Positions 4,136-59,395 of a stretch of DNA of 64,000 bases are shown piece by piece. Source of the DNA: Balanoglossus misakiensis. Its lineage: Eukaryota; Animalia; Hemichordata. The stretch lies in NCBI GenBank assembly GCA_040954595.2, contig CM082591.2, forward strand, positions 5,301,009 through 5,365,008. Reading direction: 5' to 3'. The number at the start of each line of letters is the position of its first letter. The stretch's first letter is position 1. A program made the translations under genes and the position numbers. Under the pieces are notes generated by a model. That model saw only the letters and a list, made by a program, of their open reading frames with translations, did no database searches and was not told the origin of the DNA.

Positions 4136-5732
4136 ACTCAGATTACTAACGTTTTGTTCTAGCAATGACACGGTTACCTTTCGCCTCAGTAGGGAATCCA
4201 AGCCCAGTTCATAGCTGCGCTGTTTGCAGTGTGTAATTAGCTTTGTATTTCCACATTTGCAATCAACACCATCTCTTTAGTTAAATTATTCGGAATCGGG
4301 ATAATATCCATGCTCATTTTTCATCATAGGGCCAAATAAAAAAAAAATTGCTGTTCCGATTACCCGACCTACCCTAATTTAACCCGCCCACCCTACACTT
4401 TTAGAGCTTCGTAAACCTGGAAGTAAAAATATCGATGTCAATTTTTTGAAAATTGCGCGAATCGAGTACTATGACGAAATCGCGCGCATCACGCAAGAAC
4501 CCATGCTTTGCAAATGAGATGGAATGTATTCACATAGTGTGTTCATAGCCTTAAGACATATCATTTATTAACTGATTAAATTAAATTACAAAATAATTGT
4601 TTGTATGTTAATAATTAATGTATATCATATGCGTTGGTTCATATCCTATACATGTAAGATTTATAGTTATACAAATACATGCAAAATGGTAAATTCAGTA
4701 AAATGCAGAGACAGCGTGTTACAAAAGATAGGGCATAACACGCTCAGTCAGTCAAGACATAATATAATGAAATTAACCATAGTTTCATTTGAATATAGTA
4801 GATAAACCGCCCAACCATTAACACTGTTTAAATTTCTTCGAATTTTCCACAATTCATAAAAAGGTTTCTTTAAAATGATAAGAAGTCATATCTTGAGGAA
4901 AACATAGTTACATAAAAAAGGTGGTTTTTATAATCATATAAGCCTCATTAGCTGGAATCAATTGCTCCCTATACCGATAGTATAGTAGCCCACAACGGTC
5001 ACATAGTCGACAAATGCATTCGAGACTCACAACCCAGAAGTATATGTACACACAATATATTGTGTTATTAAACCGAATATTAGACATTATATCGTTTTTT
5101 TTAAATTGAGTTAAACAAGACGCCGCAGTTGATTATAAAAAAAATTATAATGAAAATAACAGAAAAAACTTATGTACTTCAAGATACAGGATTTGTAAAA
5201 ACAACAATGTTTCATTAAATTCATAATTTCTCCCAAGTAACCGAGATTCTTGTAAATTTATGTAAGGATACTATTTTTTGCGAAAAATTTAATAAATGAT
5301 AATTCATACACAGTAATATTTATCTCCTAATTAGTATGTTTTTTTTAAAAAAAACTTTAAATATATTTAAATACAATTGAAAATTTTACAATTTCTTTTC
5401 TCTGTTAATAGAGGATGCTATAGTTTTGTAAGTGTGAATGCTATCAGTTTGGCAGATGGCTCGATATTTTACACTGTTTATGTATGCGTACAAATGGCAG
5501 AGACCATCTGCATATTCTTACGTCTAGATCCTGTAGTAATTTTAGTAATTGAAATAAGTAGGTTCGGAACTGCATAAATTATCGCGTCAAGCTGTGTAAG
5601 AGGAGCTATGTATATTGTATATAGCTGTCAACGATTTGAAATACTTGCAAACAGAAAAGCTATCTTAGCCCAACTTTACAAACATCGCCAAGCGATGTAA
5701 AGACTGCGCACTGAAGTATCATATCAGGTTGC

Positions 5733-7526
5733 TTATAAACTTTCATAACTGTTCGCATCCTGGGTTTCTGGAGATAGAGACGCGTACGTATCTTCCGTCC
5801 CATCGGCCACTGCAGCGTTAACATATACCTGTCCGGATTGGGCTTGATGGCCGCTCTTCAGTTGTGAATCGTGGACATAAGATTGTAGGTTTCCTAAATT
5901 TATGTCGGCCCCTGTTGGCGTTTCTGCCTTAGACGCTTGTGCAACAGTATCTCGGTTATCATGTGGTCTTCTTCCCCGCTTATGGCGACAGTGTCTTATT
6001 CCAAACAATAATCCGACCAGCAAAGCAGCTGTGAGAATGCCGAGAAAGAATCCGATCACCACCCCTACAAAGCCGGTAACAGATGGGACATCTGTGTTAT
6101 CAAATGTAGTATGCGTTGCAACAGCGGTTTTCGCAGGGTGTGTTCCTGTTGATGGTACGGTTGTTTCTGTGGATGTGGTCATTATTGTTGGGACCACATT
6201 ATTTCCCTTGACTGTTGAAGATAACGGAACAGTCTGGTCTACGTCACGGATGTTTAGTACCCTTACCCCCAACGACGTCCCTTCTGCGTTGGTGGCCACG
6301 CAGGAATACGAACCCGAGTCTGTCATTTCAACGGATGAGATCAGGAGGCTCCCGTTGTCAACCTGAACCAACTTTTCATGCGAACACGCGTTCTGCAGTT
6401 GAGGGTATACAGCCTCCCCACCTGGGGTGAGCCAATATTTAAATGGGTCTGGTACACCCACTACGTCACAATCCAAAGTTACATCGTCACCCAAGTCGGC
6501 GATTATCACTTGGAAGAATGTGTTGAATACCGGAAGTGGATAACACGTCATGTTGTCCGGTGGTATTTGCAATAACTCACGTCCTGCAAGATGATCTGGT
6601 GAATTACACAACATTGGTGAATATCCCAAATTCAATCGGTGACTGTTGTCATCCAGCCACATTCTGAAATCCCGTAAACGGCAGTCACACGACCAAGGAT
6701 TATTGTAAATGTATAAATAACGTAAGTTGTCAAGTCCATGGAAAATCTTTCCCGGTAAAGTTGTGATGTCGGTATTGTACATATGCAGTTGCTGCAGCTG
6801 ACCTAAGCCAGTGAATATTTTCGATGGCAACGTTTTAAGTGGGTTTAGATGTAAGGTGAGGGATAGCAACTCCGTTAACCCATTAAAAATGGTTTCTGGT
6901 AGTGCTGTAAGTTGATTATTGTATATGGACAACGTATTCAAATTTCCCAGGCCCCGAAATAAGTTTTTTGGCAATGCATTAATTTGATTTTCGTATAAAT
7001 AAAGAGCGCTAAGATTTGTCAATCCATCAAATAAATGTTCAGGTACACACGTTAATTTATTACCAGACAAATGAATCACTTCGATGTCTGTCAGTTCATG
7101 GAAAATTCTTTCTGGCATATGGGAGATTTGATTACTATTTATGTAAATGTATCTTAGTTTGGATAGATCCTTGAAAGTGTTCTCTTGAAGTGTCTCGATA
7201 CGGTTGGACCACAGTTGAAGATAAGTTAAACTGTTCAGACCAATGAATGCATCTTCGGCTATATAGTAAATTCTGTTTCTAAACAGCTCTAGCCATATCA
7301 ATTCCGAATAGCCGAGAAATGATCCACTTTCAATTCTAGTTATTTCGTTGCTCCAAAGTCTAAGTATAGTTGTGTTGTATGGTACATCTGAAGGGATTTC
7401 CGTCCAGCCTCGGTTACCACAATTGACGTCCGTGCCAGAACAAGAGCAGTTTGTTGGACATCCTTGAGTTTGCCGAAGTAGCGATAAAGCGCAGAAAATG
7501 AAACACAGTCCACACAGATATGCCAT
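5733..7526 (-). CDS. LRR-Ig-TM receptor, type A copy 2 (A2)
   Basis: 597 aa ORF with the same architecture as A1; tail contains YVN and YASL-x9-YESL. Confidence 0.95.
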   Translation of the reverse strand: MAYLCGLCFIFCALSLLRQTQGCPTNCSCSGTDVNCGNRGWTEIPSDVPYNTTILRLWSNEITRIESGSFLGYSELIWLELFRNRIYYIAEDAFIGLNSLTYLQLWSNRIETLQENTFKDLSKLRYIYINSNQISHMPERIFHELTDIEVIHLSGNKLTCVPEHLFDGLTNLSALYLYENQINALPKNLFRGLGNLNTLSIYNNQLTALPETIFNGLTELLSLTLHLNPLKTLPSKIFTGLGQLQQLHMYNTDITTLPGKIFHGLDNLRYLYIYNNPWSCDCRLRDFRMWLDDNSHRLNLGYSPMLCNSPDHLAGRELLQIPPDNMTCYPLPVFNTFFQVIIADLGDDVTLDCDVVGVPDPFKYWLTPGGEAVYPQLQNACSHEKLVQVDNGSLLISSVEMTDSGSYSCVATNAEGTSLGVRVLNIRDVDQTVPLSSTVKGNNVVPTIMTTSTETTVPSTGTHPAKTAVATHTTFDNTDVPSVTGFVGVVIGFFLGILTAALLVGLLFGIRHCRHKRGRRPHDNRDTVAQASKAETPTGADINLGNLQSYVHDSQLKSGHQAQSGQVYVNAAVADGTEDTYASLSPETQDANSYESL

Positions 7527-9476
7527 GTCGATGACTGATGGAGTATTCTGCGGGGAGAATATAATAATTATATTCAGTTATTTTCACATAATTCCTTTCA
7601 AAGTTATGTACCGTTAGTAAGATGTCATGGTGGTATTTATTTCGGGTTGTGTTCATTGAAATTGTTGCTGATACACACGCATTCGATCTATGAATGAAAT
7701 GATCTTGCACAACAACACACTTTCAAAATCAGTCGTTGTCTGCAAGATTTGAATGATTTTAATATTCTGGCAAATGTCACGGAATATACAGCGTTTTATG
7801 TGGGTGGCTGCGGCTCGCTGGTTTTCTATGGAGATGATGAATAAAGTAGTCTTTTCCGGGTTCAAAGGTCAGTTACGGAAGGATGACAATAAGTACAATA
7901 CCTGGCGGTGTGCTGATATGAGCTGTGTCGATATAACAAGACGTGCTTAGGCTTGGTAAACAATGGCGGATCTCTTTCACTCTCTTCTCACCCAGACATA
8001 TTTAAGAAGGAATAGAAGCAGATATGACGTTTGTTTGGGGCTCTGGCACAAATAAGAAATTTGCCAAAGCTGCAAAAGAGAACTCAAGACGTATCAAGTA
8101 GTGGTTTATAGAAGCCGTCGTTGAGACTTGCGAAGCGGTTTCGTGCATACAAAACCGAGTGTCGTGTCCACAGGGGTAATAGCACCCGACGGAACAGTAA
8201 GATGTTCCAGCTTAAAAACGGGCAAACCTGTTAATTTGATCATTTTGGTATCATGAATGCGACAGCAAATAGTTTGCCAGACAGATATTTTGTTGTTGAC
8301 ACTGACTCATAGCTCTGGCGTGATTCTAATGTCCACAGAGGACCAGTTCCATTTGCCAATTCACGCGTAACCAAGTTGTTTACAAGGGCGCATTGAAAAG
8401 TGGAATTTTGCATTCCCCTAATTTTGTTTATACTCGTAGGCTATACGAATAAAAGCCAAAATTCATTTAATATTCGCGCTTCATCTTGTTGTCACATAAA
8501 ATCTCAACTGAATCGCTGCATGTGATAAACTTACAGAGTGATAGAGATTATGCTGGTATGGTTGGAAAACAGATCTGATAATGCTCAACGACAACAAAAA
8601 TACTTACGTTGACGATTTGTATAATGAATGACAAAAGTTTAAGTGTGTGGGTCAATGTGGGTAAGACTTACCCTACAATGTTTCAATGTGCGTAGACACA
8701 ATCCAGCTTATGCCAGTGTTCTGAGGTAGACTCGTGACTGTCCCTGTGCGGTGCTGTCGGCAAGTTTTTTCTAAAAAGGGTGGCGCCACAAACATTTGCT
8801 AAATGGGAGCAATAATTCACTTCCATGACCCCATGTCATGACGTTTACATCCTGGCATTTCGTGGGGATGAATTTACCATGATTTTGAAATTGAACTTTG
8901 AAAAAGTAAACCACGCTTGAATACGTGCACTCTAATTGTAAAATGATTTGTTTTGCAAAAGTATGAAGGATTTGAGCAACGTGAAATATGTGACGTCATG
9001 TCAAGAAAACACTATACGGTGCGTGGTCCTTAGTGACCGTAAAGGGAGTCTATTCAGAGGCTATACATTGAAATGCACAAGTGGCCATAAAAGTTTCCAT
9101 TGACATGGATCTGTGTCACTGGACAAAACGTCACCAACCATTGGTGTACGCAGACTCTGCACAAAGGGGCTAAGATGGCTCCCCTTGCCCCATAGTGCCA
9201 TCTGTACTACAATGGTTGAGACAGATCACACGGTACAGCCGTCACACTTGGGGCTATTTACTCAGAACGCACTATTTTGTAGCCCAGCAAATTCATCCTT
9301 TTATCTAAGTGATTATGTTCATCAATAAAATACTTTAATCTTGGTCGGCAAATGCCATGTTTTTGACTTTGTTGGGATTTTAGTACCCATTCCTGCATAC
9401 CACGATAGTTTTGTACTCTTGCAACGGGCAGTTGAATAAACGGGTACTGGACGATACACATATTGAAATGTTGGGT

Positions 9477-11693
9477 TCAGATTTCTTGCAAATCTATATC
9501 AAATCTCTGCTCAGCTGCTGGCTCGACTGTTCTTGGTTTTCTGTCCTCAGACGTAACATCGACTGTGTTGCCTTGGTTGTCAAAACTCACTGAAAAGCTA
9601 CCATGTTTTTCGTAAGTATTTTGAATCACTTTGCGGCGACAGTAGCGGACCGCAAATAGTATTCCCATCGCTGCCAGAGTCGCGAGAACTCCCAGAAAGA
9701 ATCCGAGCACGGCCCACACGAGATCAGAATTTCTCGTGTTTTCCATTGTTGTGCTGGAATGGTTCCCGCTGATGTGTGTGCTTTTGAAGGGTCTCTCGGT
9801 GTCTGCTCCCCCTTCTGTCGCGGATTCTGTAACTGCAGGTACATTACCCTCCGTTACATGCGGGACTTTTGTGCTACTGAATGACACGGTTGCCGTGGTG
9901 ATTGCCAGTGGCATGGTTGTTTTGGCCAACGTTTCCCCAGCCGTTCTAACCTCAGTTGTCGAGACTATAGATGACAGTGTTTGAGATCTACCTGAAGTTC
10001 TCAATAATGAACTACTCTGTTCTGTATAAGTTACTGTGGATGGTTTATGTGATGTTAACGGCGTTGTTCTTTCTATGTAACTTATCGTGGTTGGTAAATC
10101 AGGTGTTGATGTGAATGGAGTGGTATGTTCCATATGACTATTTGTTGATGTCATTGCTAATGTTGTTAACGGCGAAGTCTGTTCTGTGTAACCGAGATTT
10201 AGTATTCTTACACCCACAGACGTTCCCTGTGAGTTCGTCGCGACGCAAGAATACGAACCCAAATCTGACATCTGTACGTTTTGAATGAAGAGGCCCCCGC
10301 CATTTGTACGACCCGTGCTTTCATTCGGACACGTATCTTGCGATGGTAGGCGTACAACCAAACCTGGTGGAGTAATCCAGTATTTATCTGGATCGGGCTC
10401 GCCAACTACGTCACAATCCAAAGTCACGCTGTGCCCTATGTCTGTGGTTAGTGTTCTAACCGGCGTGACGAATACCGGAAGTGGATAGCAAGTAAGATTG
10501 TTCAGTGGTATTTGCAGCACATTCTCTCCCACGTGGGTGTCTGGGGAATCACAAGTCATAGCTGTAGAACCATAGTAAAGTCGGCCATCATTATCCATGA
10601 GCCACGCTTTAAGGTCTTTCAAACGACAGTCACATGACCAGGGATTGTCGTAGAGGTATAAGTAATCTAAGTCATCAAGACCATCGAACACAGTACTCGG
10701 TAGAGTTGTGAGGCTGTTATTTTGTAGGTACAATTTATCCAATTGGCCCAAACCTTGGAATATTTTCAGCGGTAACGTTGTTAATGCATTGAATTCCAAA
10801 TACAGCTGGCTCAACATATTCAACCGTTCGAAAATGTTCTCTGGCATTGACTTTAACGGGTTTCTGCTCAAAGTGAGAAACTGCAGCTCTACCAAGTCAT
10901 CGAATAGCCGTCCAGGCAACGTGGTGATCTTATTAGAGTTTAGATACAGTTTCTCCAGACTTGATAGTCCGCTGAACAGATCGGCTGCTAGGCACGCCAG
11001 TTTATTGCTGGCTAGGTGAAGAGTTTGAAGATGTGCGAGTCCGCGGAAGATACCCGCGGGTAAGTGTGTGATTTGGTTATTGTATGCGTAAATAGCACTT
11101 ATGTATCTCAGGTTAGTAAAGAGGTCCTCCCGGAGCGTCGTGAAGTTGTTGTTGTTTAGACCAAGAGTCTCAATTTCACCAAGGCTCTCGAATATTCCTT
11201 CCGGTAGGACACTCAGCTGAGTGAAACTGACGCTCAGGGATCGTATTTTGCCTAGGCCTTGGAAGATTTGTTGTGGCAAGGAACCCAGGCCATTTCTGTA
11301 CACGTTAAGGTGCAACAGCTCGTGCAGACCGTGGAATATAGTCTCCGGCAACGACGATAGCAAGTTCTCGTTGATGTGGAGAGACTGCAGACGATTAAGT
11401 CCAGCGAACGCATCTTCGCCCATGTAGGTGATGTCATTGTGGTCCAGATGCAATTCCAAAAGTTGAGGATATCCCAGAAAGGAGCCGTTCTCCACGCGAG
11501 TTAGGTGGTTGTAGTTCAGTTTCAGAATGGTCGTGTCAATCGATATGTTGGCTGGGATCTCTCTCAGTTGCCGGTAACTGCAATCGACGCGGGTTTGAAA
11601 GCATGAACAATTGGCTGGACACCCTTGGTTCATTGGCAATAGTGTCACAGTGGAAAATAGCAAATAAACGCCACATACAAATAGGTATGCCAT
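9477..11693 (-). CDS. LRR-Ig-TM receptor, type B copy 1 (B1)
   Basis: 738 aa ORF: signal peptide, LRRNT, 12 LRRs plus LRRCT, Ig domain, long Ser/Thr mucin-like stalk, TM (LVWAVLGFFLGVLATLAAMGILFAV), short tail with no YxxL pair. Confidence 0.95.
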   Translation of the reverse strand: MAYLFVCGVYLLFSTVTLLPMNQGCPANCSCFQTRVDCSYRQLREIPANISIDTTILKLNYNHLTRVENGSFLGYPQLLELHLDHNDITYMGEDAFAGLNRLQSLHINENLLSSLPETIFHGLHELLHLNVYRNGLGSLPQQIFQGLGKIRSLSVSFTQLSVLPEGIFESLGEIETLGLNNNNFTTLREDLFTNLRYISAIYAYNNQITHLPAGIFRGLAHLQTLHLASNKLACLAADLFSGLSSLEKLYLNSNKITTLPGRLFDDLVELQFLTLSRNPLKSMPENIFERLNMLSQLYLEFNALTTLPLKIFQGLGQLDKLYLQNNSLTTLPSTVFDGLDDLDYLYLYDNPWSCDCRLKDLKAWLMDNDGRLYYGSTAMTCDSPDTHVGENVLQIPLNNLTCYPLPVFVTPVRTLTTDIGHSVTLDCDVVGEPDPDKYWITPPGLVVRLPSQDTCPNESTGRTNGGGLFIQNVQMSDLGSYSCVATNSQGTSVGVRILNLGYTEQTSPLTTLAMTSTNSHMEHTTPFTSTPDLPTTISYIERTTPLTSHKPSTVTYTEQSSSLLRTSGRSQTLSSIVSTTEVRTAGETLAKTTMPLAITTATVSFSSTKVPHVTEGNVPAVTESATEGGADTERPFKSTHISGNHSSTTMENTRNSDLVWAVLGFFLGVLATLAAMGILFAVRYCRRKVIQNTYEKHGSFSVSFDNQGNTVDVTSEDRKPRTVEPAAEQRFDIDLQEI

Positions 11694-13809
11694 ACCGTCC
11701 TGCTGTTAGGCTACATCAGCTGATGAAATGATCTGGAGAAAAATTCAAAATGTTATTTTTAAACATGGTAACAAAACGCCAAATTTAAGGCTCAGGGATT
11801 TGAAAAGCAACTTAATCTACAGTGGTTTCATTAGCCTATTTGAGTATAAACATTTATTTTAATGCATTGAGGCGGATTTTGTATTTTTTCATGTAGTCAA
11901 AGAAACTCCATTTAGCATGAAATATGTGGTACCATTTATTTCACAGCGTAAATTAATTGCATTCTTTGACTGCCCGCTTGAGGTAAAAAAACGAGTGACA
12001 AAAATGCTAAATTGACCTACATTTTATATTTGCAGACACACACTTGCTTTGTTCATATTACAAAGCGCGTGGGTCAAGGCAGGTCCCTTTTACCTGCCCC
12101 CGAGGAGAACGTTGACATACATTAACACATAAGACAGGCCGTGTCAGTGTACAAGGTAAACACATGCAACAATTACATACAGAATGGGATCTCGGCGGCA
12201 ACACATAGGCCTACGTGCATAGCAGCCGCGCTAGTGAAGGTAAAATCGAGTAGAAATTTAAACCTATGTCAATTCTGACTGGCGCATGTAATACCTTTAA
12301 TGTAACGTGGTCATACACCTCCCTTATTATTTCATAGTTCATTTTTCTTCAGATATACGGTTACCCAGAGATACAGGTGTAGGCCTAGTAGTGTCGCTCA
12401 CAACGACGGCCGCGGGAACCCTTCCCAGTATCCTATAGCACCAGTAAACAGTGTCACCACACTCCTCCCGTATAATGCCAGAGAATTGATATTGCGTACC
12501 ACACAAAGACATACATGTATACTGCTTAGGCTAGTTCAAAAGGAAGACTGCTCACCTAATTGATAAGGCAGCTTACGGTTTTCGGCGGGACAATTTCGTC
12601 GTCTGCGTCTGGGATTCGTGCTTCGCCATAGAAGTTGTAGTTAACGTCATAGGTCAGGGGTCAGACGGTGGGTCACGCCTCTGTTATTGTTCCGGTTCGC
12701 TGTATTCAAATGAACTGCGCTCTGGTATGTTAGGGCCTATAGCCGAAATATCGGTTTGGTTCGCCTGTGTTACTGGCATGTTAGGCCTATTCATGGATAC
12801 TGCGGTATTGGGTCGCTGGATCAATCGAGAAATTAACCGATCCTTCCAGGAAATTTTCGCCCACAACCAAAATGAGACTGAAAATACGGTGTCAGATTTA
12901 TGAATCTCAGCTATTTGGAAAAAGGACTGAAAACTTTCACGAATTACAGTAAAACAAGGCATTGCATTGAATTTGCATGTTGTAATACACGATGAACGAG
13001 TTCTCATTTGCAGATGTACAGGTCAGATTATAGTACCGTCTAGACGTTTGAGTGCATATAATAATAGGCCTACACTCCAAATAACGTACTGAGTCGTGTT
13101 TGAGTCCGTGGAAGACACTTTTACGTTGGCCTAATGAGTGAATTACTTTATATCTTCAATTCATTTCCATTTCGCACCAAGAAACATAACGAGTGGATAT
13201 TAAAATTATTGTTTCTCCATTAAAGATATGTGTGGAGCAATGACGTGGAAATGTTAAGTATCGGTCTATAGACCCGTGAGAAAAAGTGGTCATAAATTAA
13301 GTGATGTTTTATGGCAGGAACTAAAGTTTTGTAGTTTCGTATGGGAAGAAAGTTTTCGTTTACATAATGGCATTTTGAAATGAAGTGAAATCTGAAAATT
13401 ATTTAGTGTCGCTGATAGTGACGGTTTAATGGTCTTTGCATTTCTTCCCATTGTTCTGTTGGCGTGTCGTGACTGTACGTGCATGCAAGGAATTCCTGGG
13501 GTTTCATGGGGCGCGGTGGTTGACTGCTTGTTTACAAAGAGCACCGCGGTCCGGTGTAGCATACATACAGTTGTCACTGTTAGCGGCTTAGGGTCATAAT
13601 ATAGTTAGCGAATTCAATGGATTCAACCTGCTGGTAACAATGACCGCTCTGGTTCGCGGCGTTCAGGTTTTGTGTCGATGCAAATAAGAGCAGGGTGTCC
13701 TTCTCGTCACCTTTGAACCGGGAACTACGGCGCGGTATTTACGCGGCTACATTTTACTTTCGTCAGAATGTATCAAATCGACGTTTCCGCCAGAAGGGTC
13801 TGGGCAGAC

Positions 13810-13866
13810 ATGGCGACGCCGTGCGCGGGAGGGAATTTGACAGGATTCTTCGCGCTATTTCTCTGA
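13810..13866 (+). pseudogene. Truncated copy of exon 1 (signal peptide) of SRCR-WSC-CUB-CCP receptor 1
   Basis: ATG..MATPCAGGNLTGFFALFL* matches MATLCAGGILTGFFALFL at 23535; similarity stops at the duplication breakpoint. Confidence 0.8.
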
Positions 13867-15262: not shown

Positions 15263-17182
15263 TTATAAACTTTCATAAGTGTTCGCATCCTGGGTTTCTG
15301 GAGATAGAGACGCGTACGCAGCTTCCGTCCCATCGGGCATTGCAGCGTTTACATATACGTGTCCGGATTGGGCTTGATGGCCGCTCTTCAGCTGTGAACC
15401 GTGGACATAAGATTGTAGGTTTCCTAAATTTATGTCGGCCCCTGTTGGCGTTTCTTCCTTAGACGCTTGTGCAACAGTATCTCGGTTATCATGTGGTCTT
15501 CTTCCCCGCTTATGGCGACAGTGTCTAATTCCAAACAATAATCCAACCAGCAAAGCAGCTGTGAGAATGCCGAGAAAGAATCCGATCACTGCCCCTACAA
15601 AAAGTGGATTGGCGATCTTCATGTCAGCAGCAGTTTCAGCCGTTTCCTCGGTGACAGACGGGACATCTGTGTTATCAAATGTAGTATGCGTTTCAACAGC
15701 GGTTTTCGCAGGGTGGGTTCCTGTTGATGGTGCGGTTGTTTCTTCGGATGTAGACATTATTGTTGTGTCAGCCTGTCCTGTCGTTGGGATTCCATTGTTG
15801 GTCGGCTCTGTCGTTGGAATCACATCGTTGACCTCCTTTGTTGTTGGGGCCGCACTGTTTCCCATGACTGTCGAAGTTAACGGAACAGTCTGGTCTACGT
15901 CACGGATGTTTAGTACCCTTACCCCCAACGACGTCCCTTCTGCGTTGGTGGCCACGCAGGAATACGAACCCGAGTCTGTCATTTCAACGGATGAGATCAG
16001 GAGGCTCCCGTTGTCAACTTGAACCAACTTTTCATGCGAACACGCGTTCTGCAGTTGAGGGTATACAGCCTCCCCACCAGGGGTGAGCCAATATTTAAAT
16101 GGGTCTGGTTCACCAACTACGTCACAATCCAATGTTACATTGTCACCCACGTCCGTGATTATCACTTCGAATTCTGTGCTGAATACCGGAAGTGGATAAC
16201 ACGTCATGTTGTCCGGTGGTATTTGCAATAACTCACGTCCTGCAAGATGATCTGGTGAATTACACATCATTGGTGGAGATCCCAAATTCAATCGGTGACT
16301 GTTGTCATCCAGCCACATTCTGAAATCCCGTAAACGGCAGTCACACGACCAAGGATTATTGTAAATGTATAAATAACCTGAGTTGTCAAGTCCATGGAAA
16401 ATCTTTCCCGGCAAAGTTGTTATGTCGTTATTGTACATATGCAGCCACTTCAGCTGACCTAAGCCAGTGAATATTTTCGATGGCAAGGTTTTCATTGGGT
16501 TTTGACCTAAGTTGAGGTATGTCAACGTCGTTAACCCATTAAAAACGGTTTCGGGTAGTATAGTTAGTTGATTATCGTACATATACAACGTATGCAAATT
16601 TCCCAGGCCCCGAAATAAGTTTTTAGGCAATGCATTAATTTGATTGCTGTGTAAGTAAAGAGCGCGAAGATTTGTCAATCCATCAAATACATTTTCAGGA
16701 ACACACGTCAATCTATTATGAGCCAAATGAATCCTGTCGATGTCTGTCAGTTCATGGAAAATTCTTTCTGGCAAATGGGAGATTTGATTATTATGTATGT
16801 GAATGTCTCTTAGTTTGGATAGATCCTTGAAAGTGTTCTCTTGAAGTGTCTCGATACGGTTGGACGCCAGGTGAAGAAAAGTTAAACTGTTCAGACCAAT
16901 AAATGCATCTTCAGCTATATAGTAAATTCTATTGCCATGCAGGTCTAGGTGTAGCAATTCTGAATAGTTGATAAAGGATTCGCTTTCAATTCTAGTTATG
17001 TCGTTGTTGTAGAGTAAAAGTTTGGCTGTGTTGTATGGTACATCTGAAGGGATTTCCGTCCAGCCTCGGTTACCACAATTGACGTTCGTGCCAGTACAAT
17101 AGCAGCTTGTTGGACATCCTTGAGTTTGCCGAAGTAGCGATAAAGCACAGAAAATGAAACCCAGTCCACACAGATATGCCAT
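15263..17182 (-). CDS. LRR-Ig-TM receptor, type A copy 3 (A3), long-stalk variant
   Basis: 639 aa ORF with type A architecture; about 42 extra residues in the stalk; tail YVN and YASL-x9-YESL. Confidence 0.95.
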   Translation of the reverse strand: MAYLCGLGFIFCALSLLRQTQGCPTSCYCTGTNVNCGNRGWTEIPSDVPYNTAKLLLYNNDITRIESESFINYSELLHLDLHGNRIYYIAEDAFIGLNSLTFLHLASNRIETLQENTFKDLSKLRDIHIHNNQISHLPERIFHELTDIDRIHLAHNRLTCVPENVFDGLTNLRALYLHSNQINALPKNLFRGLGNLHTLYMYDNQLTILPETVFNGLTTLTYLNLGQNPMKTLPSKIFTGLGQLKWLHMYNNDITTLPGKIFHGLDNSGYLYIYNNPWSCDCRLRDFRMWLDDNSHRLNLGSPPMMCNSPDHLAGRELLQIPPDNMTCYPLPVFSTEFEVIITDVGDNVTLDCDVVGEPDPFKYWLTPGGEAVYPQLQNACSHEKLVQVDNGSLLISSVEMTDSGSYSCVATNAEGTSLGVRVLNIRDVDQTVPLTSTVMGNSAAPTTKEVNDVIPTTEPTNNGIPTTGQADTTIMSTSEETTAPSTGTHPAKTAVETHTTFDNTDVPSVTEETAETAADMKIANPLFVGAVIGFFLGILTAALLVGLLFGIRHCRHKRGRRPHDNRDTVAQASKEETPTGADINLGNLQSYVHGSQLKSGHQAQSGHVYVNAAMPDGTEAAYASLSPETQDANTYESL

Positions 17183-19130
17183 GTCGATAACTGATGGAGT
17201 ATTCTGCGGGGAGAATATAATATATATTCAGTTATTTTCACATAATTCCTTTAGTTATGTACCGTTCTTAAGATGTCATGGTGGTATTTATTTTGGGTTG
17301 TGTTCATTGAAATTGTTGCTGATACACACGCATTCGATCCATGAATGAAATTATCTTGCACAACAACACACTTTCAAAATCAGTCGTTGTCTGCAAGATT
17401 TGAATGATTTTAATATTCTGGCAAATGTCACGGAATATACAGCGTTTTATGTGGGTGGGTGCGGCTCATTGGTTTTCTATGGAGAAGATGAATAAAGTAG
17501 TATTTTCCAGGTTCAAAGGTGAGTGATCGAAGGATGACAATAGGTTCAATACTAGGCGGTGTGCCGATATGAGCTGTGCCGATATAAGAAGATATGCGTA
17601 GGCTTGGTAAACAATGGCGGATCTCTTTCACTCTCTTCTCACCCAGACACATTTAAGAAGGAATAGAAGCAGATATGACGTTTGTTTGGGGCTCTGGCAC
17701 AAATAAGAAATTTGCCAAAGATGCAAAATAGAACTCAAGACGTATCAAGTAGTGGTTTATACAAGCCGTCGTTGAGACGTGCACAGCGGTTTCGTGCATA
17801 CAAAACCGAGTGTCGTGTCCAAAGGGGGTAATAGCACCCGACGGAACAGTCAGATGTTCCAGCTTAAAAACGGGCAAACCTGTTAATTTGATCATTTTGG
17901 TATCATGAATGCGACAGCAAATAGTTTGCCAGACATATATTTTGTTGTTGACACTGACTCATAGCTTTGGCGTGATTCTAATGTCCACAGAGGACCAGTT
18001 CCATTTGCCAATTCACGCGTAACCAAGTTGTTTACAAGGGCGCATTGAAAAGTGGAATTTTGCATTCCCCTAATTTTGTTTATACTCGTAGGCTATGTGA
18101 ATAAAAGCCAAAATTCATTTAATATTCGCGCTTCATCTTGTTGTCACATAAAATCTCAACTGAAATCGCTGCATGTGATAAACTTACATATTGATAGAGA
18201 TTATGCTGGTATGGTTGGAAAAAAGATCTGATAATGCTCAACGACAACAAAAATACTTACGTTGACGATTTGTATAATGAATGACAAAATTTTAACTGTG
18301 TGGGTCAATGTGGGTAAGACTTACCCTACAATGTTTCAATGTGCGTAGACACAACCAGGCTTATGCCAGTGTTCTGAGATAGACTCGTGACTGTCCCTGT
18401 GCGGTGCTGTCGGAAAGTTTTTTTCTATAAAGGGTGGGGCAACAAACATTGGTAAATAGGAGCAATAGTTCACTTCCATGACCCCATATCCTGACGTAGA
18501 CATTCTGGCATTTCGGGGGATGAATTTACCATGATTTTGAAATTGAACTTTGAAAAAAAGTAAACCACGCTTGAATACGTGCACTCTAATCATAAAATGA
18601 TTTGTTTTGCAATAGTATTAAGGATTTATGTAAAGTAAAATGATATGTGGCGTCAATACACTATACGGTGCGTGGTCCTCAATGGCCTTGAACGGGAGTC
18701 TATTCAGAGGCTATACATTGAAATGCACAAGTGGCCATAAAAGTTTCCATTGACATGGATCTGTGTCACTGGACAAAACGTCACCAACCATTGGTGTACG
18801 CAGACTCTGCACAAAGGGGCTAAGATGGCTCCCCTTGCCCCCTATAGTGCCATCTGTATACTACAATGGTTGAGACAGATCACACGGTACAGCCGTTACA
18901 CTTGGGGCTATTTACTCAGAACGCACTATTTTGTAGCCCAGCAAATTCATCCTTTTATCTAAGTGATTATGTTCATCAATAAATTTCTTTAATCTTGGTC
19001 GGCAAATGCCATGTTTTTGACTTTGATGGGATTTTAGTACCCATTCCTGCATACCACGATAGTTTTGTACTCTTGCAACGGGCAGTTGAATAAGCGGGTA
19101 CTGCACGATACATATATTGAAATGTTGGGT

Positions 19131-21347
19131 TCAGATTTCTTGCAAATCTATATCAAATCTCTGCTCAGCTGCTGGCTCGACTGTTCTTGGTTTTCTGTCC
19201 TCAGACGTAACGTCGACTGTATTACCTTGGTTGTCAAAACTCACTGAAAAGCTACCATGTTTTTCGTAAGTATTTTGAATCACTTTGCGGCGACAGTAGC
19301 GGACCGCAAATAGTATTCCCATCGCTGCCACAGTCGTGAGAACTCCCAGAAAGAATCCGAGCACGGCCCACACAAGATCAGAATTTCTCGTGTTTTCCAA
19401 TGTTGTGCTGGAATTGTTCCCGCTGATGTGTGTGCTTTTGAAGGGTCTCACGGTGTCTGCTCCCCCTTCTGTCGCGGATTCTGTAACTGCAGGTACATTA
19501 CCCTCCGTTACATGCGGGACTTTTGTGCTACTGAATGACACGGTTGCCGTGGTGATTGCCAGTGGTATGGTTGTTTTGGCCAACGTTTCTCCAGCCGTTC
19601 TAACCTCAGTTGTCGAGACTATAGATGACAGTGTTTGAGATCTACCTGAAGTTCTCAATAATGAACTACTCTGTTCTGTATAAGTTACTGTGGATGGTTT
19701 ATGTGATGTTAACGGCGTTGTTCTTTCTATGTAACTTATCGTGGTTGGTAAATCAGGTATTGATGTGAATGGAGTGGTATGTTCCATATGACTATTTGTT
19801 GATGTCATTGCTAATGTTGTTAACGGCGAAGTCTGTTCTGTGTAACCGAGATTTAGTATTCTTACTCCCGCAGAAGTTCCCTGTGAGTTCGTCGCTACGC
19901 AAGAATACGAACCCAAATCTGACATCTGTACGTTTTGAATGAAGAGACCCCCGCCATTTGTACGACCCGTGCTTTCATTCGAACACGTATCTTGCGGCTG
20001 TAGGCGTACAACCAAACCTGGTGGAGTAATCCAGTATTTATCTGGATCGGGCTCGCCAACTACGTCACAATCCAAAGTCACGCTGTGCCCTATGTCTGTG
20101 GTTAGTGTTCTAACCGGCGTGACGAATACCGGAAGTGGATAGCAAGTAAGATTGTTCAGTGGTATTTGTAGCACATTCGCTCCCGCATGGGTTTCTGGGG
20201 AATCGCACGTCATAGCTGTAGAACCATAGTAAAGTCGGCCATCATTATCCATGAGCCACGCTTTAAGGTCTTTCAAACGACAGTCACATGACCAGGGATT
20301 GTCGTAGAGGTATAAGTAATCTAAGTCATCAAGACCATCGAACACAGTACTCGGTAGAGTTGTGAAGCTGTTATTTTGTAGGTACAGTTTATCCAATTGA
20401 CCCAAACCTTGGAATATTTTCAGCGGTAACGTTGTTAATGCATTGAATTCCAAATACAGCTGGCTCAACATATTCAACCGTTCGAAAATGTTCTCTGGCA
20501 TTGACTTTAACGGGTTTCTGCTCAAAGTGAGAAACTGCAGCTCTACCAAGTCATCGAATAGACGTCCAGGCAACGTGGTGATCTTATTAGAGTTTAGATA
20601 CAGTTTCTCCAGACTTGATAGTCCGCTGAACAGATCTGCTGCTAGGCACGCCAGTTTATTGCTGGCTAGGTGAAGAGTTTGAAGATGTGTGAGTCCGCGG
20701 AAGATACCCGCGGGTAAGTGTGTGATTTGGTTATTGTATGCGTAAATAGTACTTATGTATCTCAGGTTAGTAAAGCGGTCCTCCCGGAGCGTCGTGAAGT
20801 TGTTGTTGTTTAGATAAAGAGTCTCAATTTCAACAAGGCTCTCGAATATTCCTTCCGGTAGGACACTCAGCTGAGTGAAACTGACGCTCAGGGATCGTAT
20901 TTTGCCTAGGCCTTGGAAGATTTGTTGTGGCAAGGAACCCAGGCCATTTCTGTACACGTTAAGGTGCAACAGCTCGTGCAGACCGTGGAATATAGTCTCC
21001 GGCAACGACGACAGCAAGTTCTCGTTGATGTGGAGAGACTGCAGACGATAAAGTCCAGCGAACGCATCTTCGCCCATGTAGGTGATGTCATTGTGGTCCA
21101 GATGCAATTCCAAAAGTTGAGAATATCCCAGAAAGGAGCCGTTCTCCACGCGAGTTAGGTGGTTGTAGTTCAGTTTCAGAATGGTCGTGTCAATCGATAT
21201 GTTGGCTGGGATCTCTCTCAGTTGCCGGTAACTGCAATCGACGCGGGTTTGAAAGCATGAACAATTGGCTGGACACCCTTGGATCATTGGCAATAGTGTC
21301 ACAGTGGAAAAAAGCAAATAAACGCCACATACAGATAGGTATGCCAT
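19131..21347 (-). CDS. LRR-Ig-TM receptor, type B copy 2 (B2)
   Basis: 738 aa ORF; roughly 23 aa differences from B1 by manual comparison. Confidence 0.95.
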   Translation of the reverse strand: MAYLSVCGVYLLFSTVTLLPMIQGCPANCSCFQTRVDCSYRQLREIPANISIDTTILKLNYNHLTRVENGSFLGYSQLLELHLDHNDITYMGEDAFAGLYRLQSLHINENLLSSLPETIFHGLHELLHLNVYRNGLGSLPQQIFQGLGKIRSLSVSFTQLSVLPEGIFESLVEIETLYLNNNNFTTLREDRFTNLRYISTIYAYNNQITHLPAGIFRGLTHLQTLHLASNKLACLAADLFSGLSSLEKLYLNSNKITTLPGRLFDDLVELQFLTLSRNPLKSMPENIFERLNMLSQLYLEFNALTTLPLKIFQGLGQLDKLYLQNNSFTTLPSTVFDGLDDLDYLYLYDNPWSCDCRLKDLKAWLMDNDGRLYYGSTAMTCDSPETHAGANVLQIPLNNLTCYPLPVFVTPVRTLTTDIGHSVTLDCDVVGEPDPDKYWITPPGLVVRLQPQDTCSNESTGRTNGGGLFIQNVQMSDLGSYSCVATNSQGTSAGVRILNLGYTEQTSPLTTLAMTSTNSHMEHTTPFTSIPDLPTTISYIERTTPLTSHKPSTVTYTEQSSSLLRTSGRSQTLSSIVSTTEVRTAGETLAKTTIPLAITTATVSFSSTKVPHVTEGNVPAVTESATEGGADTVRPFKSTHISGNNSSTTLENTRNSDLVWAVLGFFLGVLTTVAAMGILFAVRYCRRKVIQNTYEKHGSFSVSFDNQGNTVDVTSEDRKPRTVEPAAEQRFDIDLQEI

Positions 21348-23534
21348 ACCGTCCTGCTGTTAGGCTACACCAGCTGATGAAATGATCTGGAGAAAAATTC
21401 AAAATGTTATTTTTAAACATGGTAACAAAATTCCAAATTTAAAGCTCAGGGATTTGAAAAGCAACTTAATCTACAGTGGTTTCATTAGCCTATTTGAGTA
21501 TAAAAATTTATTTTAATGCGTTGGGGCGGATTTTGTATTTTTTCATGTAGTCAAAGAAACTCCTTTAGCATGAAATTAGTTTAATTACATCATCTATGTA
21601 CACATGTGGTACCATTTTTTTCACAGCGTAAATTAATTTCATTCTTTCCAAAGATTCTTATTTTACTGTTTTCTCTTATTTATATTAAGAACGCCCCCTT
21701 GAGGGAAAAAAATCGAGCGACAAAAATGCTAAATTGACCTACATTTTATATTTGCAGACACTCACAGGCTATGTTCATATTACAAAGCGCGTGGGTCAAG
21801 GCAGGTCCCTTTGACCTGCCCCCGAGGAGAACGTTGACATACATTAACACATAAGACAGGCCGTGTCAGTGTACAAGGTATACACATGCAACAATTACAT
21901 ACAGAATGGGATCTCGGCGGCAACACATAGGCCTACGTGCATAGCAGCCGCGCTAATGAAGGTAAAATCGAGTAGAAATTTAAACCTATGTCAATTCTGA
22001 CTGGCGCATGTAATACATATAACAAAACTCTGATCATGCAACGTGTTCATACACCCCCTCATTATTTCATAGTTCATTATTCTTCAGATATACGGTTAGG
22101 CCTACCCAGAGATACAGGTATAGTGTCGCTCACAACGACGGCAGCGCGGGAACCCTTCCTAGTATCCTATAGCACCAGTAAACAGAATCACCACACACTC
22201 CTCCTGTAATGCCAGAGAGTTGAAATTGCGTCCCACACAAAGACATATGCTGCTCAGGCTACTTCAAAAGGAAGACTGATCACCTAATTGATAAGGCAGC
22301 TTACGGTTTTCGGCGGGACAATTTCGTCGTCTGCGTCTGAGATTCGTGCTTCGCCATAGAAGTTGTAGTTAACGTCATAGGTCAGGGGTCAGACGGTGGG
22401 TCACGCCTCTGTTATTGTTCCGGTTCGCTGTATTCAAATGAACTGCGCTCTGGTATGTTGGTGCCTATAGCCGAAATATCGCCTATGTTACTGGCATGTT
22501 AGGCCGATTCATGGATACTGCGGTATTGGGTCCATGGATCAATCGAGAGATTAACCGATCCTTCCAGGAAATTTTCGCCCACAACCAAAATGAGACTGAA
22601 AATACGGTGTCAGATTTATGAATCTCAGCTATTTGGAGAAAGGACTGAAAACTTTCACGAATTACAGTAAAACAAGGCATTGCATTGAATTGGCATGTTG
22701 TAATACATGATGAACGAGTTCTCATTTGCAGATGTACAGGTCAGATTACAGTACCGTCTAGACGTTTGAGTGCGAATAAGAATAGTCCTACACTCGAAAT
22801 AACGTACTGAGTCGTTTTTGAGTCCGTGGAAGACACTTTTACGTTGGCCCAATGAGTGAATTACTTTATATCTTCAATTCATTTCCATTTCGCACCAAGA
22901 AACATAACGAGTGGATATTAAAATTATTGTTTCTCCATTAAAGATATGTGTGGAGCAATGATGTTTTCCCTACGACCAACGTGGAAATGTTAAGTATTGG
23001 TCTATAGACCCGTGAGAAAAAGTGATGTTTTATGGCAGGAATTAAAGTTTTGTAGTTTCGTATGGGAAGAAAGTTTTCGTTTACATAATGACATTTTGAA
23101 ATGAAGTGAAATCTGAAAATTATTTAGTGTCGCTGATAGCGACGGTTTAATGGTCTTTGCATGTCTTCCCATTGTTCTGTTGGCGTGTCGTGACTGTACG
23201 TGCATGCAAGGAATTCTTGAGGTTTCCAGGGGCGCGGTGGTTGACTGCTTGTTTACAAAGAACACCGCTGTCCGGTGTAGCATACATACAGTTGTCACTG
23301 TTAGCGGCTTAGGGTCATAATATAGTTAGCGAATTCAATGGATTCAACCTGCTGGTAACAATGATCGCTCTGGTTCGCGGCGTTCAGGTTTTGTGTCGAT
23401 GCAAATAAGAGTAGGGTGTCCTTCGCGTCACCTTTGAACCGGGAACTTCAGCGCGATATTTACGCGGCTACATTTACTGTCGTCAGAATGTATCAAGTCG
23501 ACTAGACGTTTCCGCCAGAAGGGTCTAGGCAGAC

Positions 23535-26500
23535 ATGGCGACGCTGTGCGCGGGAGGGATTTTGACAGGATTTTTCGCGCTATTTCTCTGTGTCTGCGTT
23601 CACGGCATTGAAGGTGAGTCCCAATGTTGTGTAGTGAGCTATTAATATAAAGTTCATTCAAAGATTCGGGTCGTTCACCGTATTAGGCTAAGTACCTTCG
23701 CGTGTCATCTGCCGTAGTTAGCGACTTGATATCTATGATCTCTTGTAATTGTTTGCGAATATTCTACAAACAATCACAGGAGCAACTGACCAGCACCCCA
23801 AGCACATTCGGGCTTTCGTTTTAATATCTAACAACACCTTACTAAACAGGGCACAGAGAGTTCGCCCCTCAAGACGCTACTCAGGAAATCAAAAATATAT
23901 CATCATCTGTACTCGTCCGAAATTCCGTGTCTGTAAATTTTATTCAGTATTGAAAATGTTATTTTAATATGCAGTCATTGGTAATACAAGTAACGTATTG
24001 ACATGTCCCACGCACACAAAAAACCTAGATATGTTATGAGCGCGGGGTTTTGAAAAAAATGGAAGTGAATTTATGGATTTAAGTTTCGTGTCAGTTCCCT
24101 TAATTAGCTTGTGAGGCCCGTGATATCATATTTGTGATTGCGGATTTCCTGATCAAGCTATATCTTCCACCAGAGAACTATATTAATGGAAATATCTTTC
24201 TATTAACTTTATTTCTGTGTCAAAAAAAATATTTCAGTACTGGGGAAAATTCTTGAAAATAGCGTAATTCTCGCCCCCGCCGTCGTTTTAACAGAACAGT
24301 TTGTGTATTGTCGGCAAAACAGTGACTCAAATTACGAGCATTTATTTCCTCAAAAGGCAAAACTATTTTTGGCTGTACTTTCGCATCTGCAGATAGCAAA
24401 AACATTGAACCACTCAAGATTACATAACTGTGTGGCGATGAAATATTTCAATTCAACCCTCTGATAACTCGGTCTGGTGTACAGTAAATTAAACTCTTTC
24501 TTTGTCGTGCCAGACTGAAAAATCTGCCGCCGTGGTTCCCACTAGAAAAGAACAACAACAACATCATGATTAATGGCGACAGGCAACCATGCAGCCACTG
24601 TATAGTTTACATGTAACGCTTTAGGTGTTAAGGTTGTGACCTGGCGCCACCATGCTGCTGATGAACAATGACACCATGGGGTTCGAAACAAACCAGTCAA
24701 AACTGAAATCGATGAGATTTTTTCAAACACTGCATGTGACAGATGGCCCCCATGACTTTTAACATTTTAGAGTGACAGAGTCGCCCTGTCTAGCCTTTCT
24801 GTGATATCAAGAATGCATGGTGTACAAAATGGTGTGCATTACTTCAGTGTCACAAATCTACCCATGTTTCTGTATGTAAGTGGTAGTTTTGGTCGTGTCC
24901 TCTCAGTACATGAAAAAGTGTCAACAATATAATTTTTTGACAAGTGATGATTAAGGCCCTGTATGAAGGAAATTGAAAATGGGTGGGCGAACATAGCAGA
25001 AAACTCCGCTCGGGAAAACCCCGACTGGTCTTTCTGCACGACAACAAAGATTCACTGTCTGGTAGCTCTTCAAACGTGGCGACCTAAATTTAGAAGTGAA
25101 CTAGTGTGTGTTTTTCATCTTTGTCCCGTTTGGGTTTTATAGTTAAGGGCTTGTATGTCTTAAATTAATGTAACTACACCCTGGCGAGACATTGCTGTTG
25201 AGTAAAATGACACCGGGTTAATCTTGCCCAGTGAAAGAACCTGAATTCATATGGAGACATACTTGAAATTATGTAACAATTTCAATGTACATGTATTTGG
25301 GGTTTTTTTTTCACAGAACGACTCCGACTTGTCGATGGCATATATCCATTTGAAGGACGAGTTGAAGTGTATATAAATGAAACTGTTGCGGAGTGGTTAC
25401 CAGTGTGTTGGTCTGGGTGGCATTTTTCTGATGCTGACTTTGTTTGTAATCAACTGGGTTAGTATCTAGTATCCAGTCTTTGTAGACTTAAAGGGTCATT
25501 AGCTGTAACTTTTGACTATTTTTTATTACTTGTGTTCTGTGTACTAACACCAGTTTCCTATCCTTACCCGCACATAATGCTCAAGTGTCCAGTATTCTGA
25601 TTGTCAACGTAGCCTACACATGTGAAATGATCATTGTTATTGTCGAAAATTGAATTCAAGTCCGGACTAGAATACAAACTTTCAACAACAACAATGCAGA
25701 TTGTACTCATATAGGGGATGTTAATGAACAAAATACTGGGCATTTCATCATGGTTCAGGGATTCCAACCAGAAACTGTAGTTGATACATAGAACAAACAA
25801 AATAAGAAAATGACCAAAAGATACAGCTAATGGATCTTTAAGTATAGTCATCCAGAATGGCATCTGTGCATGTACCTGTTTAAAGCATATGCCAATTAAT
25901 GAGAATATTTGAAAATCAAGAATTGTTTGCGGAAGAGTGAATACACAAAATATATTATCCGCAGGACACGATATGAAATTATTTGTGTACTCATTACCAG
26001 AATCAGGAAATTCGATTTCACAGGTTATGAAGGTGCTATGCGGTCCCGGCGAATGTCTGGTGCTTTAGCGAGGGATTCCCGAAGAGCGGTGGCGTGGTTT
26101 GATTGTGTTGATGGATCTACGACTCTTGACGACTGCACGTACAGCATCATAGCCTCTAAAGATTGCAACGACACCGCTATCATAAGATGTAATTGTAAGT
26201 CTCCTCGTGATTATATTATTGTATTATTTTGATTGTTAGAGAAAACGACATGAACAATCTTAGTGCACCTTTACTGTCCGACAATACATCCAGTTTATTG
26301 CAAACGCCATCCACTTTGTTTTGGGGTCAAGTGTGTGTCTACATAATTGCATGTGTTAGAATTTTTTTGGCATGGCTATTTCTGTAGACATAAGACATTT
26401 GTCTATGCACGGAACTGTTGATAAAGAAGGATCAGCCGTGCATCGCATATGCCTTGTAAAGTTTATGTGATGTGATTAATATAATGCGTAATCATCACGT

Positions 26501-38980: not shown

Positions 38981-39431
38981 CGTGGATGGCAAGTATGAAA
39001 TTTTGACTAACGTAGCGGGAAGGTATGGTACCTGTGACACCGGAAACAAGTTGATATCAAATAACATACAAATTAACAACCAACACGCACGCGCGCGCGC
39101 ACATTCGTTAAGAACATTGTTCCCATTGCTCAAGCTTTACATATCCTACGGGTCATTTTTTAATCAGAATTCGAATTCGGACCTACCTTATTCAAGAAAG
39201 CCAAGGTACAGCAGCTCTCAGCCAGATCACCATTCGCCAAATGACTAGGCAGCTCAGATGTATCAGCCTCCTTCTGGGCTTGGGTGCTTATACAAAATGC
39301 GATTGGGGCCTGGACTGTTTTATAACCACACGCAATGTTTATACATGTAGTACCTCTCTATAAGTATATAACCTCTTTACTGATAATTGCAAGGCTAGGG
39401 CACGGTAACCCCAATTGTTTGGTGATTTGCA

Positions 39432-58252: not shown

Positions 58253-58342
<90 letters not shown>

Positions 58343-59059: not shown

Positions 59060-59395
59060 TTTATTTTTTTAAATGTAAAGAAAATAAGCGGACAAAAATT
59101 AGTCTCCTTTAGAGGAAATTCAAACTGCCCATTAAAACATAAACTGTGATTACTTGATGCTAACAGCAGTTAACATGTTTATGTATTGCCACAGATGTTT
59201 TCAGTTGTTCATAAGATAATTTTCACTGACGATAATCGAATTTGATCCATTTCTGAATCATCTTGTGAACTGTGGTCCTGAAACACGCTGCCAGGTCATA
59301 ACATGCTTTACTGCTCTTTTCTCTTTTGTTTGCTTCTCCGTCAATCACCAATTACTCTTTTTTTCCCTTTTTTATAATCTCGTGATTTTGATTAA
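59060..59395 (+). repeat. Diverged direct repeat, left copy
   Basis: tctccttta..ttacttgat..taacagc..cagatgttt..tgacgataa..atccattt..atcatcttgtg..acgctgccaggtcat is shared with ~61710-62045. Confidence 0.75.

Follow-up and report, generated by a model that had tools for sequence, protein, structure and literature searches.

Five leucine-rich repeat genes of two types

The stretch analysed here, 64,000 nucleotides of contig CM082591.2 of the hemichordate Balanoglossus misakiensis and called the window below, represents one haplotype of one species, and the linkage of its receptor-like genes was judged inside it. Five intact genes, each a single open reading frame (ORF), lie on the minus strand in the order A1, A2, B1, A3 and B2. 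They encode leucine-rich repeat (LRR) proteins of two types. Pfam found LRRNT, LRR and I-set immunoglobulin (Ig) domains in all five proteins and a TIR domain in none of the five, and a hydrophobic N-terminus and a transmembrane (TM) segment were read from the sequence in A and B proteins. The A proteins have ten LRRs each and serine/threonine (S/T) stalks of 57 (A1), 57 (A2) and 99 residues (A3). An earlier, sequence-only reading had given B more LRRs, a longer stalk and no immunoreceptor tyrosine-based activation motif (ITAM), and this description holds: B has 13 LRRs and a stalk of 155 residues, and the ITAM consensus was present in 3/3 A tails (spacer of 9) but in 0/2 B tails. The consensus, Yxx[I/L]x(6-9)Yxx[L/I] in an excerpt of PMC9546547, was scanned as Yxx[LIV]x6-9Yxx[LIV]. 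In the AlphaFold model of A2 the LRR blocks had pLDDT values of 85-97 and the TM helix covered residues 486-516; the nearest solved folds among the top Foldseek matches were LINGO-1 and NGL1-3. Self-BLAST of the 64 kb detected no LRR fragments outside the genes, and the A ORFs are complete. The donor of a predicted intron in the 5' untranslated region (UTR) is conserved in A1, A2 and A3, and a separate promoter for every A copy is likely.

Single A copies also have peculiarities of their own. The tail of A1 (window 1036-1065) is the most divergent of the three, with 24 consecutive A1-private sites; it has lost the upstream YxN tyrosine that A2, A3 and the enteropneust relatives keep, and it runs three residues beyond the stop of A2 and A3. 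At residues 268-269 of A3, where the last LRR begins, SG is found instead of LR, which may be mildly damaging.

Diversifying selection on the concave face of the A receptors

Concave positions were fixed beforehand by the LRR motif as offsets 2, 3, 5, 7 and 8. A2 and A3 differed at 84/597 residues, at 35/50 concave positions and in 10/10 LRRs, in line with the earlier observation that most of their LRR strands differ. Among A1-A3, these five offsets varied in 8-9 of the ten repeats, the other offsets in 0-3. The predicted beta-strands of the A2 model cover offsets 3-7, which would place offsets 3, 5 and 7 on the strands and offsets 2 and 8 at their edges. The variable face is rich in aromatic residues (37% Y/W/F/H), and a loop in the LRRCT is also variable among the A copies.

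At concave positions we counted 48 nonsynonymous changes on about 116 sites between A2 and A3 versus 3 on about 157 sites between B1 and B2 (Fisher p = 9e-18). For A2/A3, the nonsynonymous (dN) and synonymous (dS) divergences at these positions were 0.60 and 0.16, and their ratio (omega) was 5.2, 6.4 and 5.8 in the three A pairs (likelihood-ratio test (LRT) against 1, p = 2e-8, 6e-8 and 8e-9). The other LRR positions of A had omega values of 0.37-0.68. The concave LRR face of A is under strong diversifying selection, and the accelerated change proposed for A is supported in this respect in all three pairs, each with p < 1e-7.

B1 and B2 differed at 24/738 residues (3.3%), with concave changes at 2/65 positions, G178Y (ETLGLNN/ETLYLNN) and A200T (SAIYAY/STIYAY); the divergence of about 3% and both changes are as they had been reported. 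The description of B as invariant was not borne out by the codon analysis. Omega was 0.47 overall (p = 0.018 against 1), whereas at concave positions it was 0.63 and indistinguishable from 1 (p = 0.43), with 3 nonsynonymous changes versus a neutral expectation of about 6-7 (Poisson p = 0.08-0.17). B is a functional gene under moderate purifying selection, and the divergence of its two copies is too recent to reveal a special constraint. An L191R change in B2 (window 20775-20777) falls on a hydrophobic LRR position and may be mildly damaging.

Age and mosaicism of the A repeats

A2 with B1 and A3 with B2 had been proposed to lie in one duplicated block, and self-BLAST recovered this block at about 9.4 kb (4538-13865 matching 14061-23590 at 91-93% identity). 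Noncoding divergence between its copies was 4.0-5.7% in four segments, with 40 indel events. Synonymous divergence of B (20/548 sites) equalled the noncoding rate (169/4064 in three segments from 7527 to 13865; p = 0.65). In the LRRs of A2/A3, 21/157 synonymous sites differed when compared with the same 169/4064 noncoding sites (p = 5e-6), and the excess persisted when concave codons were removed (16/123, p = 8e-5). At fourfold sites the counts were 10/66 in the A2/A3 LRRs versus 14/345 in B (p = 0.002), and the codon model gave synonymous clocks of 0.130 for the A LRRs versus 0.034 for B, a ratio of about 3.8 (LRT p = 6.5e-5). The block is therefore not the clean internal control of a single age that it had been taken for. 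Moreover, over the whole LRR region of A2/A3, dS was as high as dN (0.151 vs 0.139), an outcome that the sequence-only reading had itself named in advance as speaking against it. The gap in concave dN between A and B, about 31-fold, decomposes into an age difference of about 3.8-fold and an omega difference of about 8-fold. That two genes share a duplicated block does not imply that they share its age.

The three A genes differ unevenly along their length. A1 and A2 differed at 1/144 nucleotides in codons 76-123 and at 10-23 in the other four blocks, so that codons 76-123 of A2 likely represent a conversion tract with A1. A1 and A3 differed at 6/144 nucleotides in codons 172-219. Calls of the odd one out among the three copies were clustered along A, both by a runs test on 63 informative LRR codons (p = 5e-5) and across the A unit, where 0/10000 shuffles of 223 thinned sites were as extreme. 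By this pattern, A1-A3 read as sequence mosaics. Together with the higher synonymous divergence of the A LRRs than of B and the flanks, the mosaic structure indicates that the A LRR haplotypes are older than the cassette. Since the flanks of the A genes diverge by just 4-6%, some LRR blocks probably derive from long-lived alleles or from copies beyond the window.

Origin and tail of the B genes

In the LRRCT-Ig region, A and B were 56-59% identical, and the split between them appears old on this comparison. A lineage-specific clade of A and B is a candidate grouping, present in the best tree with support of 78/81. An origin of the B tail as a truncated A tail was considered and not accepted: its likeness was weak and confined to A1 (shuffle p = 0.03; 0.85 for A2 and 0.39 for A3), and downstream of the B stop no remnant of an ITAM was found. 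A tail of the B type was seen in 0/10 of the enteropneust relatives retrieved, by searches that were incomplete. The search with B from the LRRCT to the end gave 3 matches, all with A-type tails, and the full-length search likewise returned no B tail. Nor did phmmer against 1.84 billion representatives among the best 150 of 2896 matches, which were mostly multi-Ig proteins and of which 5 were examined.

Duplication history of the block

Besides the cassette that holds A and B, self-BLAST revealed a separate A-only unit (1-4138 matching 4783-8917 at 93% identity) that stops between A and B. Of the two duplication events visible in this haplotype, one A-only and one A+B, only one thus included B. 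Coordinates are collected in Table 1.

Table 1. Positions of the receptor genes, duplicated units and gene C elements in the window
Feature	Position	Strand	Remarks	Basis
A-only duplicated unit with A1	1..4138	.	homologous to 4783-8917 and 14304-18571; may reach past the left end of the window	self-BLAST, three-way alignment
A1 ORF, 599 aa	949..2748	-	signal peptide, LRRNT, 10 LRRs, LRRCT, I-set Ig, 57-aa S/T stalk, TM, ITAM-consensus tail	ORFs, Pfam
Cassette copy 1	4538..13865	.	A2, B1, B upstream region and stump of gene C exon 1	self-BLAST
A2 ORF, 597 aa	5733..7526	-	architecture as A1; tail with YxN and YASL-x9-YESL	ORFs, Pfam, AlphaFold
A2 LRR solenoid, residues 52-278	6693..7373	-	hypervariable LRR positions 2, 3, 5, 7, 8	
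Predicted A2 5'UTR intron	7548..8670	-	acceptor right before ATG; donor kept in A1, A2, A3	sequence motifs only
B1 ORF, 738 aa	9477..11693	-	signal peptide, LRRNT, 13 LRRs, LRRCT, I-set Ig, 155-aa S/T stalk, TM, 56-aa ITAM-less tail	ORFs, Pfam
Truncated copy of gene C exon 1	13810..13865	+	right breakpoint of cassette 1 inside	sequence
Spacer between cassettes, 195 bases	13866..14060	.	unique within the window	X1 contig 13880-14167, 0 differences, depth 60
Cassette copy 2	14061..23590	.	A3, B2 and B upstream region, into intact gene C	self-BLAST
A3 ORF, 639 aa	15263..17182	-	stalk 42 aa longer than in A1/A2; ITAM-consensus tail as A1/A2	ORFs, Pfam
B2 ORF, 738 aa	19131..21347	-	96.7% identity to B1	ORFs, Pfam
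CpG-rich zone between B2 and gene C	23200..23600	.	candidate bidirectional promoter	prediction only
Candidate B first-exon donor	23433 (13712 in copy 1)	.		prediction only
Predicted gene C signal-peptide exon 1	23535..23613	+	phase-1 donor; head-to-head with B2	sole candidate ATG in 21400-26600; phase fits WSC exon
Gene C body	26505..31819	+	WSC, CUB and Sushi exons; 865-codon open frame with six NxxY[DE] motifs	Pfam, predicted gene model

Had the assembler placed both alleles of one locus in tandem, the contrast between A and B would be allelic polymorphism. Alleles of polymorphic marine invertebrates can differ about as much as the noncoding DNA does here (4-6%, with 40 indel events), and among the contigs listed none bridges 13865/13866. 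The read-level check was made with Logan contigs from three DNA runs of one sample. Over B, a contig of 1743 bases from run X1 departed from B1 at 23 positions and from B2 at 17, together all of the 40 B1/B2 differences there. Its depth of 72.9, and that of a second B contig (69.6), exceeded all five listed contigs of unique sequence (40-58) and the value of about 46 that would follow from B1 and B2 being mere alleles; since depth does not equal copy number and the window itself may come from the X1 sample, the check is a rough one. Depth and differences together point to at least three B copies per diploid. The depth of the spacer also looks two-copy, and the junction falls inside an exon, unlike a contig-type edge. 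The duplication probably does not consist of two alleles, and we consider the allelic explanation highly improbable. Additional close A alleles were considered as well, but of the 40 variants listed among 385, 39 carried a letter that one of the window's paralogues has.

The cassette breakpoint (window 13857-13883) has a short direct repeat of about 9 bases on either side, a pattern like that of microhomology-mediated joining. Short interspersed high-copy elements, recognized by many loose contig ends and high depth, lie at 8870-8880, 9395-9445 and 25490-25760; one of them is just past the B stop and one near the boundary of the A unit.

Gene C at the block edge

The right edge of the block cuts the predicted exon 1 of gene C at 23535-23613. 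As the block comprises A, B, a promoter and part of C, its breakpoints look mechanical. The 865-codon frame of gene C is acidic and likely forms a cytoplasmic tail; the TM exon was not located in the model. A and B are arranged head-to-tail on a shared strand, whereas B stands head-to-head with gene C, with ATGs 2.2 kb apart. Gene C rather than A might be the cognate partner of B, the two sharing a bidirectional promoter and acting as sensor (B) and signaller (C), in which case the duplication left B1 without its C. The layout with its CpG-rich zone, the closeness of a candidate B donor to the C ATG (about 100 bases) and the six NxxY[DE] motifs of the likely C tail all fit this arrangement. 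Head-to-head layout is nevertheless common without partnership, the gene C model is predicted only, and C was not duplicated alongside B. In excerpts of PMC12582321, cognate pairs of Botryllus are head-to-head and their co-receptors have Sushi domains and tyrosine motifs. By its head-to-head layout C would fit B better than A does, and yet we regard a B:C pair as quite unlikely.

Roles of the A and B genes

We consider it fairly probable that A1-A3 are self-sufficient ITAM-signalling recognition receptors whose LRR blocks are swapped among copies, and that B, an old paralogue without an ITAM, was duplicated with A as its neighbour in one tandem event. Each A protein would bind a changing ligand, most likely microbial or parasitic, on its concave beta-sheet, which the Ig domain and the stalk would hold outward. 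Clustering of A would lead to phosphorylation of YxxL-x9-YxxL by Src-family kinases and to recruitment of Syk/Shark, and the signal would drive phagocytosis or cell activation. YxN is a Grb2 motif, and Grb2 may possibly act at the upstream YxN. An amphioxus LRR phagocytic receptor acts through Grb2 according to part of PMC10199209. We infer the ligand class and the signalling steps of A from known ITAM receptors and analogues. Old LRR haplotypes would persist and be reshuffled by conversion or unequal crossover, which we propose as the reason why the LRRs of A2/A3 predate the surrounding block. B would likely bind a fixed ligand, or serve in adhesion or as a decoy, independently of any one A. 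As the A1 unit ends between A and B and the block edge cuts the predicted exon 1 of gene C, the linkage of A and B does not show partnership, and B is most likely a passenger paralogue.

Several points weigh against this reading. The codon model is our own pairwise maximum-likelihood implementation. With flanks only 4-6% divergent in all three A genes, the window does not fully explain where the older LRR blocks came from. The window starts inside the flank of A1, so that further B copies could sit to the left. Both B copies are intact and under the purifying selection described above, and their retention with A could be selected; Botryllus cognate receptor pairs, in excerpts of PMC12582321, duplicate as units.

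The last two points also favour the functional A:B pair proposed by the sequence-only reading, B being a conserved co-receptor, ligand or regulator of the variable A that was duplicated and kept with it as a unit. Both genes are intact in both copies of the block, and a partner that presents or dampens could well have the longer ectodomain and ITAM-less tail of B. Precedents exist in Botryllus FF/FcoR, where birth and death occur as pairs (PMC12582321, in part), and in the highly polymorphic three-gene APL1 locus, where, according to PMC3050937, APL1C forms complexes with the ordinarily variable LRIM1. However, B took part in only one of the two visible duplications, A, with an ITAM-consensus motif of its own, is missing no signalling part, and the B-type tail was absent from the ten relatives retrieved in incomplete searches. 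Constraint on the concave face of B is not established by its 3 changes, and the Botryllus pairs, in the same excerpts, are head-to-head and matched in polymorphism. Adjacency is what speaks for B as a co-receptor or ligand of A, and nothing besides it does; several features stand against obligatory pairing. We therefore judge an A:B pair unlikely.

Relatives in other enteropneusts

The best matches were from Ptychodera flava and Glandiceps talaboti, with 38-43% identity overall and 47-55% in LRRCT-Ig, which by itself makes an enteropneust source of the window likely. These LRR-Ig-TM relatives carry automatic names only, and none has a B tail; they share with A the distal tail motif and the concave variability. 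Nine P. flava proteins, six close (XP_070559167, XP_070557318, XP_070557317, XP_070559168, XP_070557423 and XP_070557422) and three distant, are encoded on one 47-Mb contig. The tails of the six close proteins share the distal A-type motif: three meet the ITAM pattern, two are without the last tyrosine and one is short. The G. talaboti relative (XP_077979274) has three tyrosines in similar order and misses the strict pattern. Among three full-length P. flava proteins, 38/60 concave versus 43/228 other positions differed in the first four LRRs, and 35/45 versus 26/132 in the last three. Comparisons with P0125 and P0127 (7/10 of the pairs for the last three LRRs) were left out, since the register of these short models was shifted.

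In the relatives tree, which is small, has open forks and leaves out rows P0124, P0167 and P0079, the P. flava members grouped apart from A and B, with open support, and LRRC4, at 26-27% identity, sat on a branch of length 2.0 away from the enteropneust rows. With 9-15 LRRs in the full-length relatives, B does not stand out by its repeat number. Two models, P0253 (P. flava XP_070557209) and P0289 (Acanthaster XP_022084419), each look like two adjacent LRR-Ig-TM genes fused into one, with tails that bear tyrosines, which suggests that tandem arrays of such genes may occur across Ambulacraria.

Comparison with known receptor systems

The layout of LRRNT, LRRs, LRRCT, one Ig and TM is common to the vertebrate LIG or LRR_Ig/FN3 proteins (NGL/LRRC4, LINGO, AMIGO, SALM), and LRRC4, LRRC4B and LRRC4C matched nearly the entire ectodomain (E = 7e-48 to 1e-44, about 26-30% identity). 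The vertebrate proteins are conserved and mostly neural (PMC2235866, in part), whereas A is tandem, mosaic, hypervariable on its concave face and equipped with an ITAM-consensus tail. The A proteins might be self/non-self molecules, for allorecognition or gamete recognition, or part of an adhesion code rather than pathogen sensors, B being peripheral. Their architecture and nearest solved folds are those of the adhesion receptors LINGO-1 and NGL/LRRC4. Enteropneusts, on the other hand, are solitary, and to our knowledge fusion-type allorecognition is not known in them. ITAM-bearing polymorphic receptor clusters do occur in the Hydractinia histocompatibility complex (excerpt of PMC9546547), but comparable selection on concave beta-strands is described for immune Toll-like receptors (TLRs) of sea urchins in part of PMC3367398. 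We hold a self-recognition or adhesion role of A to be very unlikely. The sea urchin TLR subfamilies, which are expanded in tandem in another ambulacrarian, differ from A in that they signal through TIR and have no Ig, whereas A has an Ig, a stalk and a tyrosine-motif tail.

The variable lymphocyte receptors (VLRs) of agnathans are assembled somatically from an incomplete germline gene and flanking LRR cassettes. They and the VLR-like proteins of amphioxus resemble A in their 24-residue LRRs, aromatic-rich variable concave face, variable LRRCT loop, S/T stalk and module-sized exchange, and VLR-type diversity on the concave face and in the LRRCT loop was indeed found in A. Unlike VLRs, the A genes are complete germline ORFs with Ig, TM and tail, and the window holds no incomplete gene or flanking LRR cassettes. 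The APL1/LRIM1 proteins are secreted and coiled-coil-linked. Anopheles APL1A/B/C with LRIM1, as far as part of PMC3050937 describes them, likewise combine three diverse LRR paralogues, conversion mostly in the LRRs and a less variable LRR partner; they differ from A and B in a demonstrated complex and in having no TM or ITAM.

Botryllus FF/FcoR (PMC12582321, in part) are, like A and B, tandem receptors of a deuterostome with intergenic recombination, tyrosine motifs and duplication as a two-gene unit. They are built of Ig and Sushi domains rather than LRRs, are head-to-head and matched in polymorphism, and their co-expression has been shown. In the present cassette the variable gene holds the ITAM, one duplication omitted B, A and B share a strand, and paralogue divergence was 14% for A2/A3 versus 3.3% for B1/B2, a comparison of paralogues, not of alleles. 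An enteropneust paired-receptor complex, in which A would shuffle LRR modules in the manner of VLRs and signal through its ITAM, with B as cognate partner of A (or of C) and the whole inherited as a cassette convergent with FF/FcoR, is doubtful.

The amphioxus immune-repertoire genome paper reportedly describes an LRR-Ig expansion. The literature search, made mostly without subscription papers, found no description of an enteropneust family with concave hypervariability, mosaicism and an ITAM tail. The architecture is that of known LRR-Ig proteins (PMC2235866); what may be new is that one enteropneust family joins these three traits.

Other features of the window

Three further multi-exon genes with WSC, CUB, Sushi and SRCR exons lie at 39426-42246 (+), 45232-49543 (-) and 52989-58778 (+), two of them head-to-head around 49.5-53 kb. 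The portion at 41431-42246 has four NxxY[DE] motifs, and a perfect tetranucleotide array of about 1.77 kb lies inside an intron at 53899-55666; its length may be an assembly feature. Taken as a whole, the window has the look of a tyrosine-motif receptor cluster. A single-ORF gene at 59872-61017 (+) resembles glycosyltransferase family 2 (Pfam E = 8e-6) and is flanked by an imperfect direct repeat of 300 bases (59077-59384 and 61728-62031). A fragment at about 34944-35249 (-) we take to be like an arylsulfatase exon; Pfam gave only a weak unrelated match.

Meaning for recognition in hemichordates

The pairing of A with B would matter only if binding or co-inheritance of the two were demonstrated. 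Hemichordates appear to have few TLRs, with 8 in Saccoglossus in a table of PMC3367398. A family present in at least three enteropneust genomes that joins a VLR-like variable LRR face to an ITAM-consensus tail and exchanges its LRR blocks in the germline is a concrete candidate for carrying diverse recognition in these animals, and the A family offers a testable link from LRR recognition to Syk-type signalling outside chordates.

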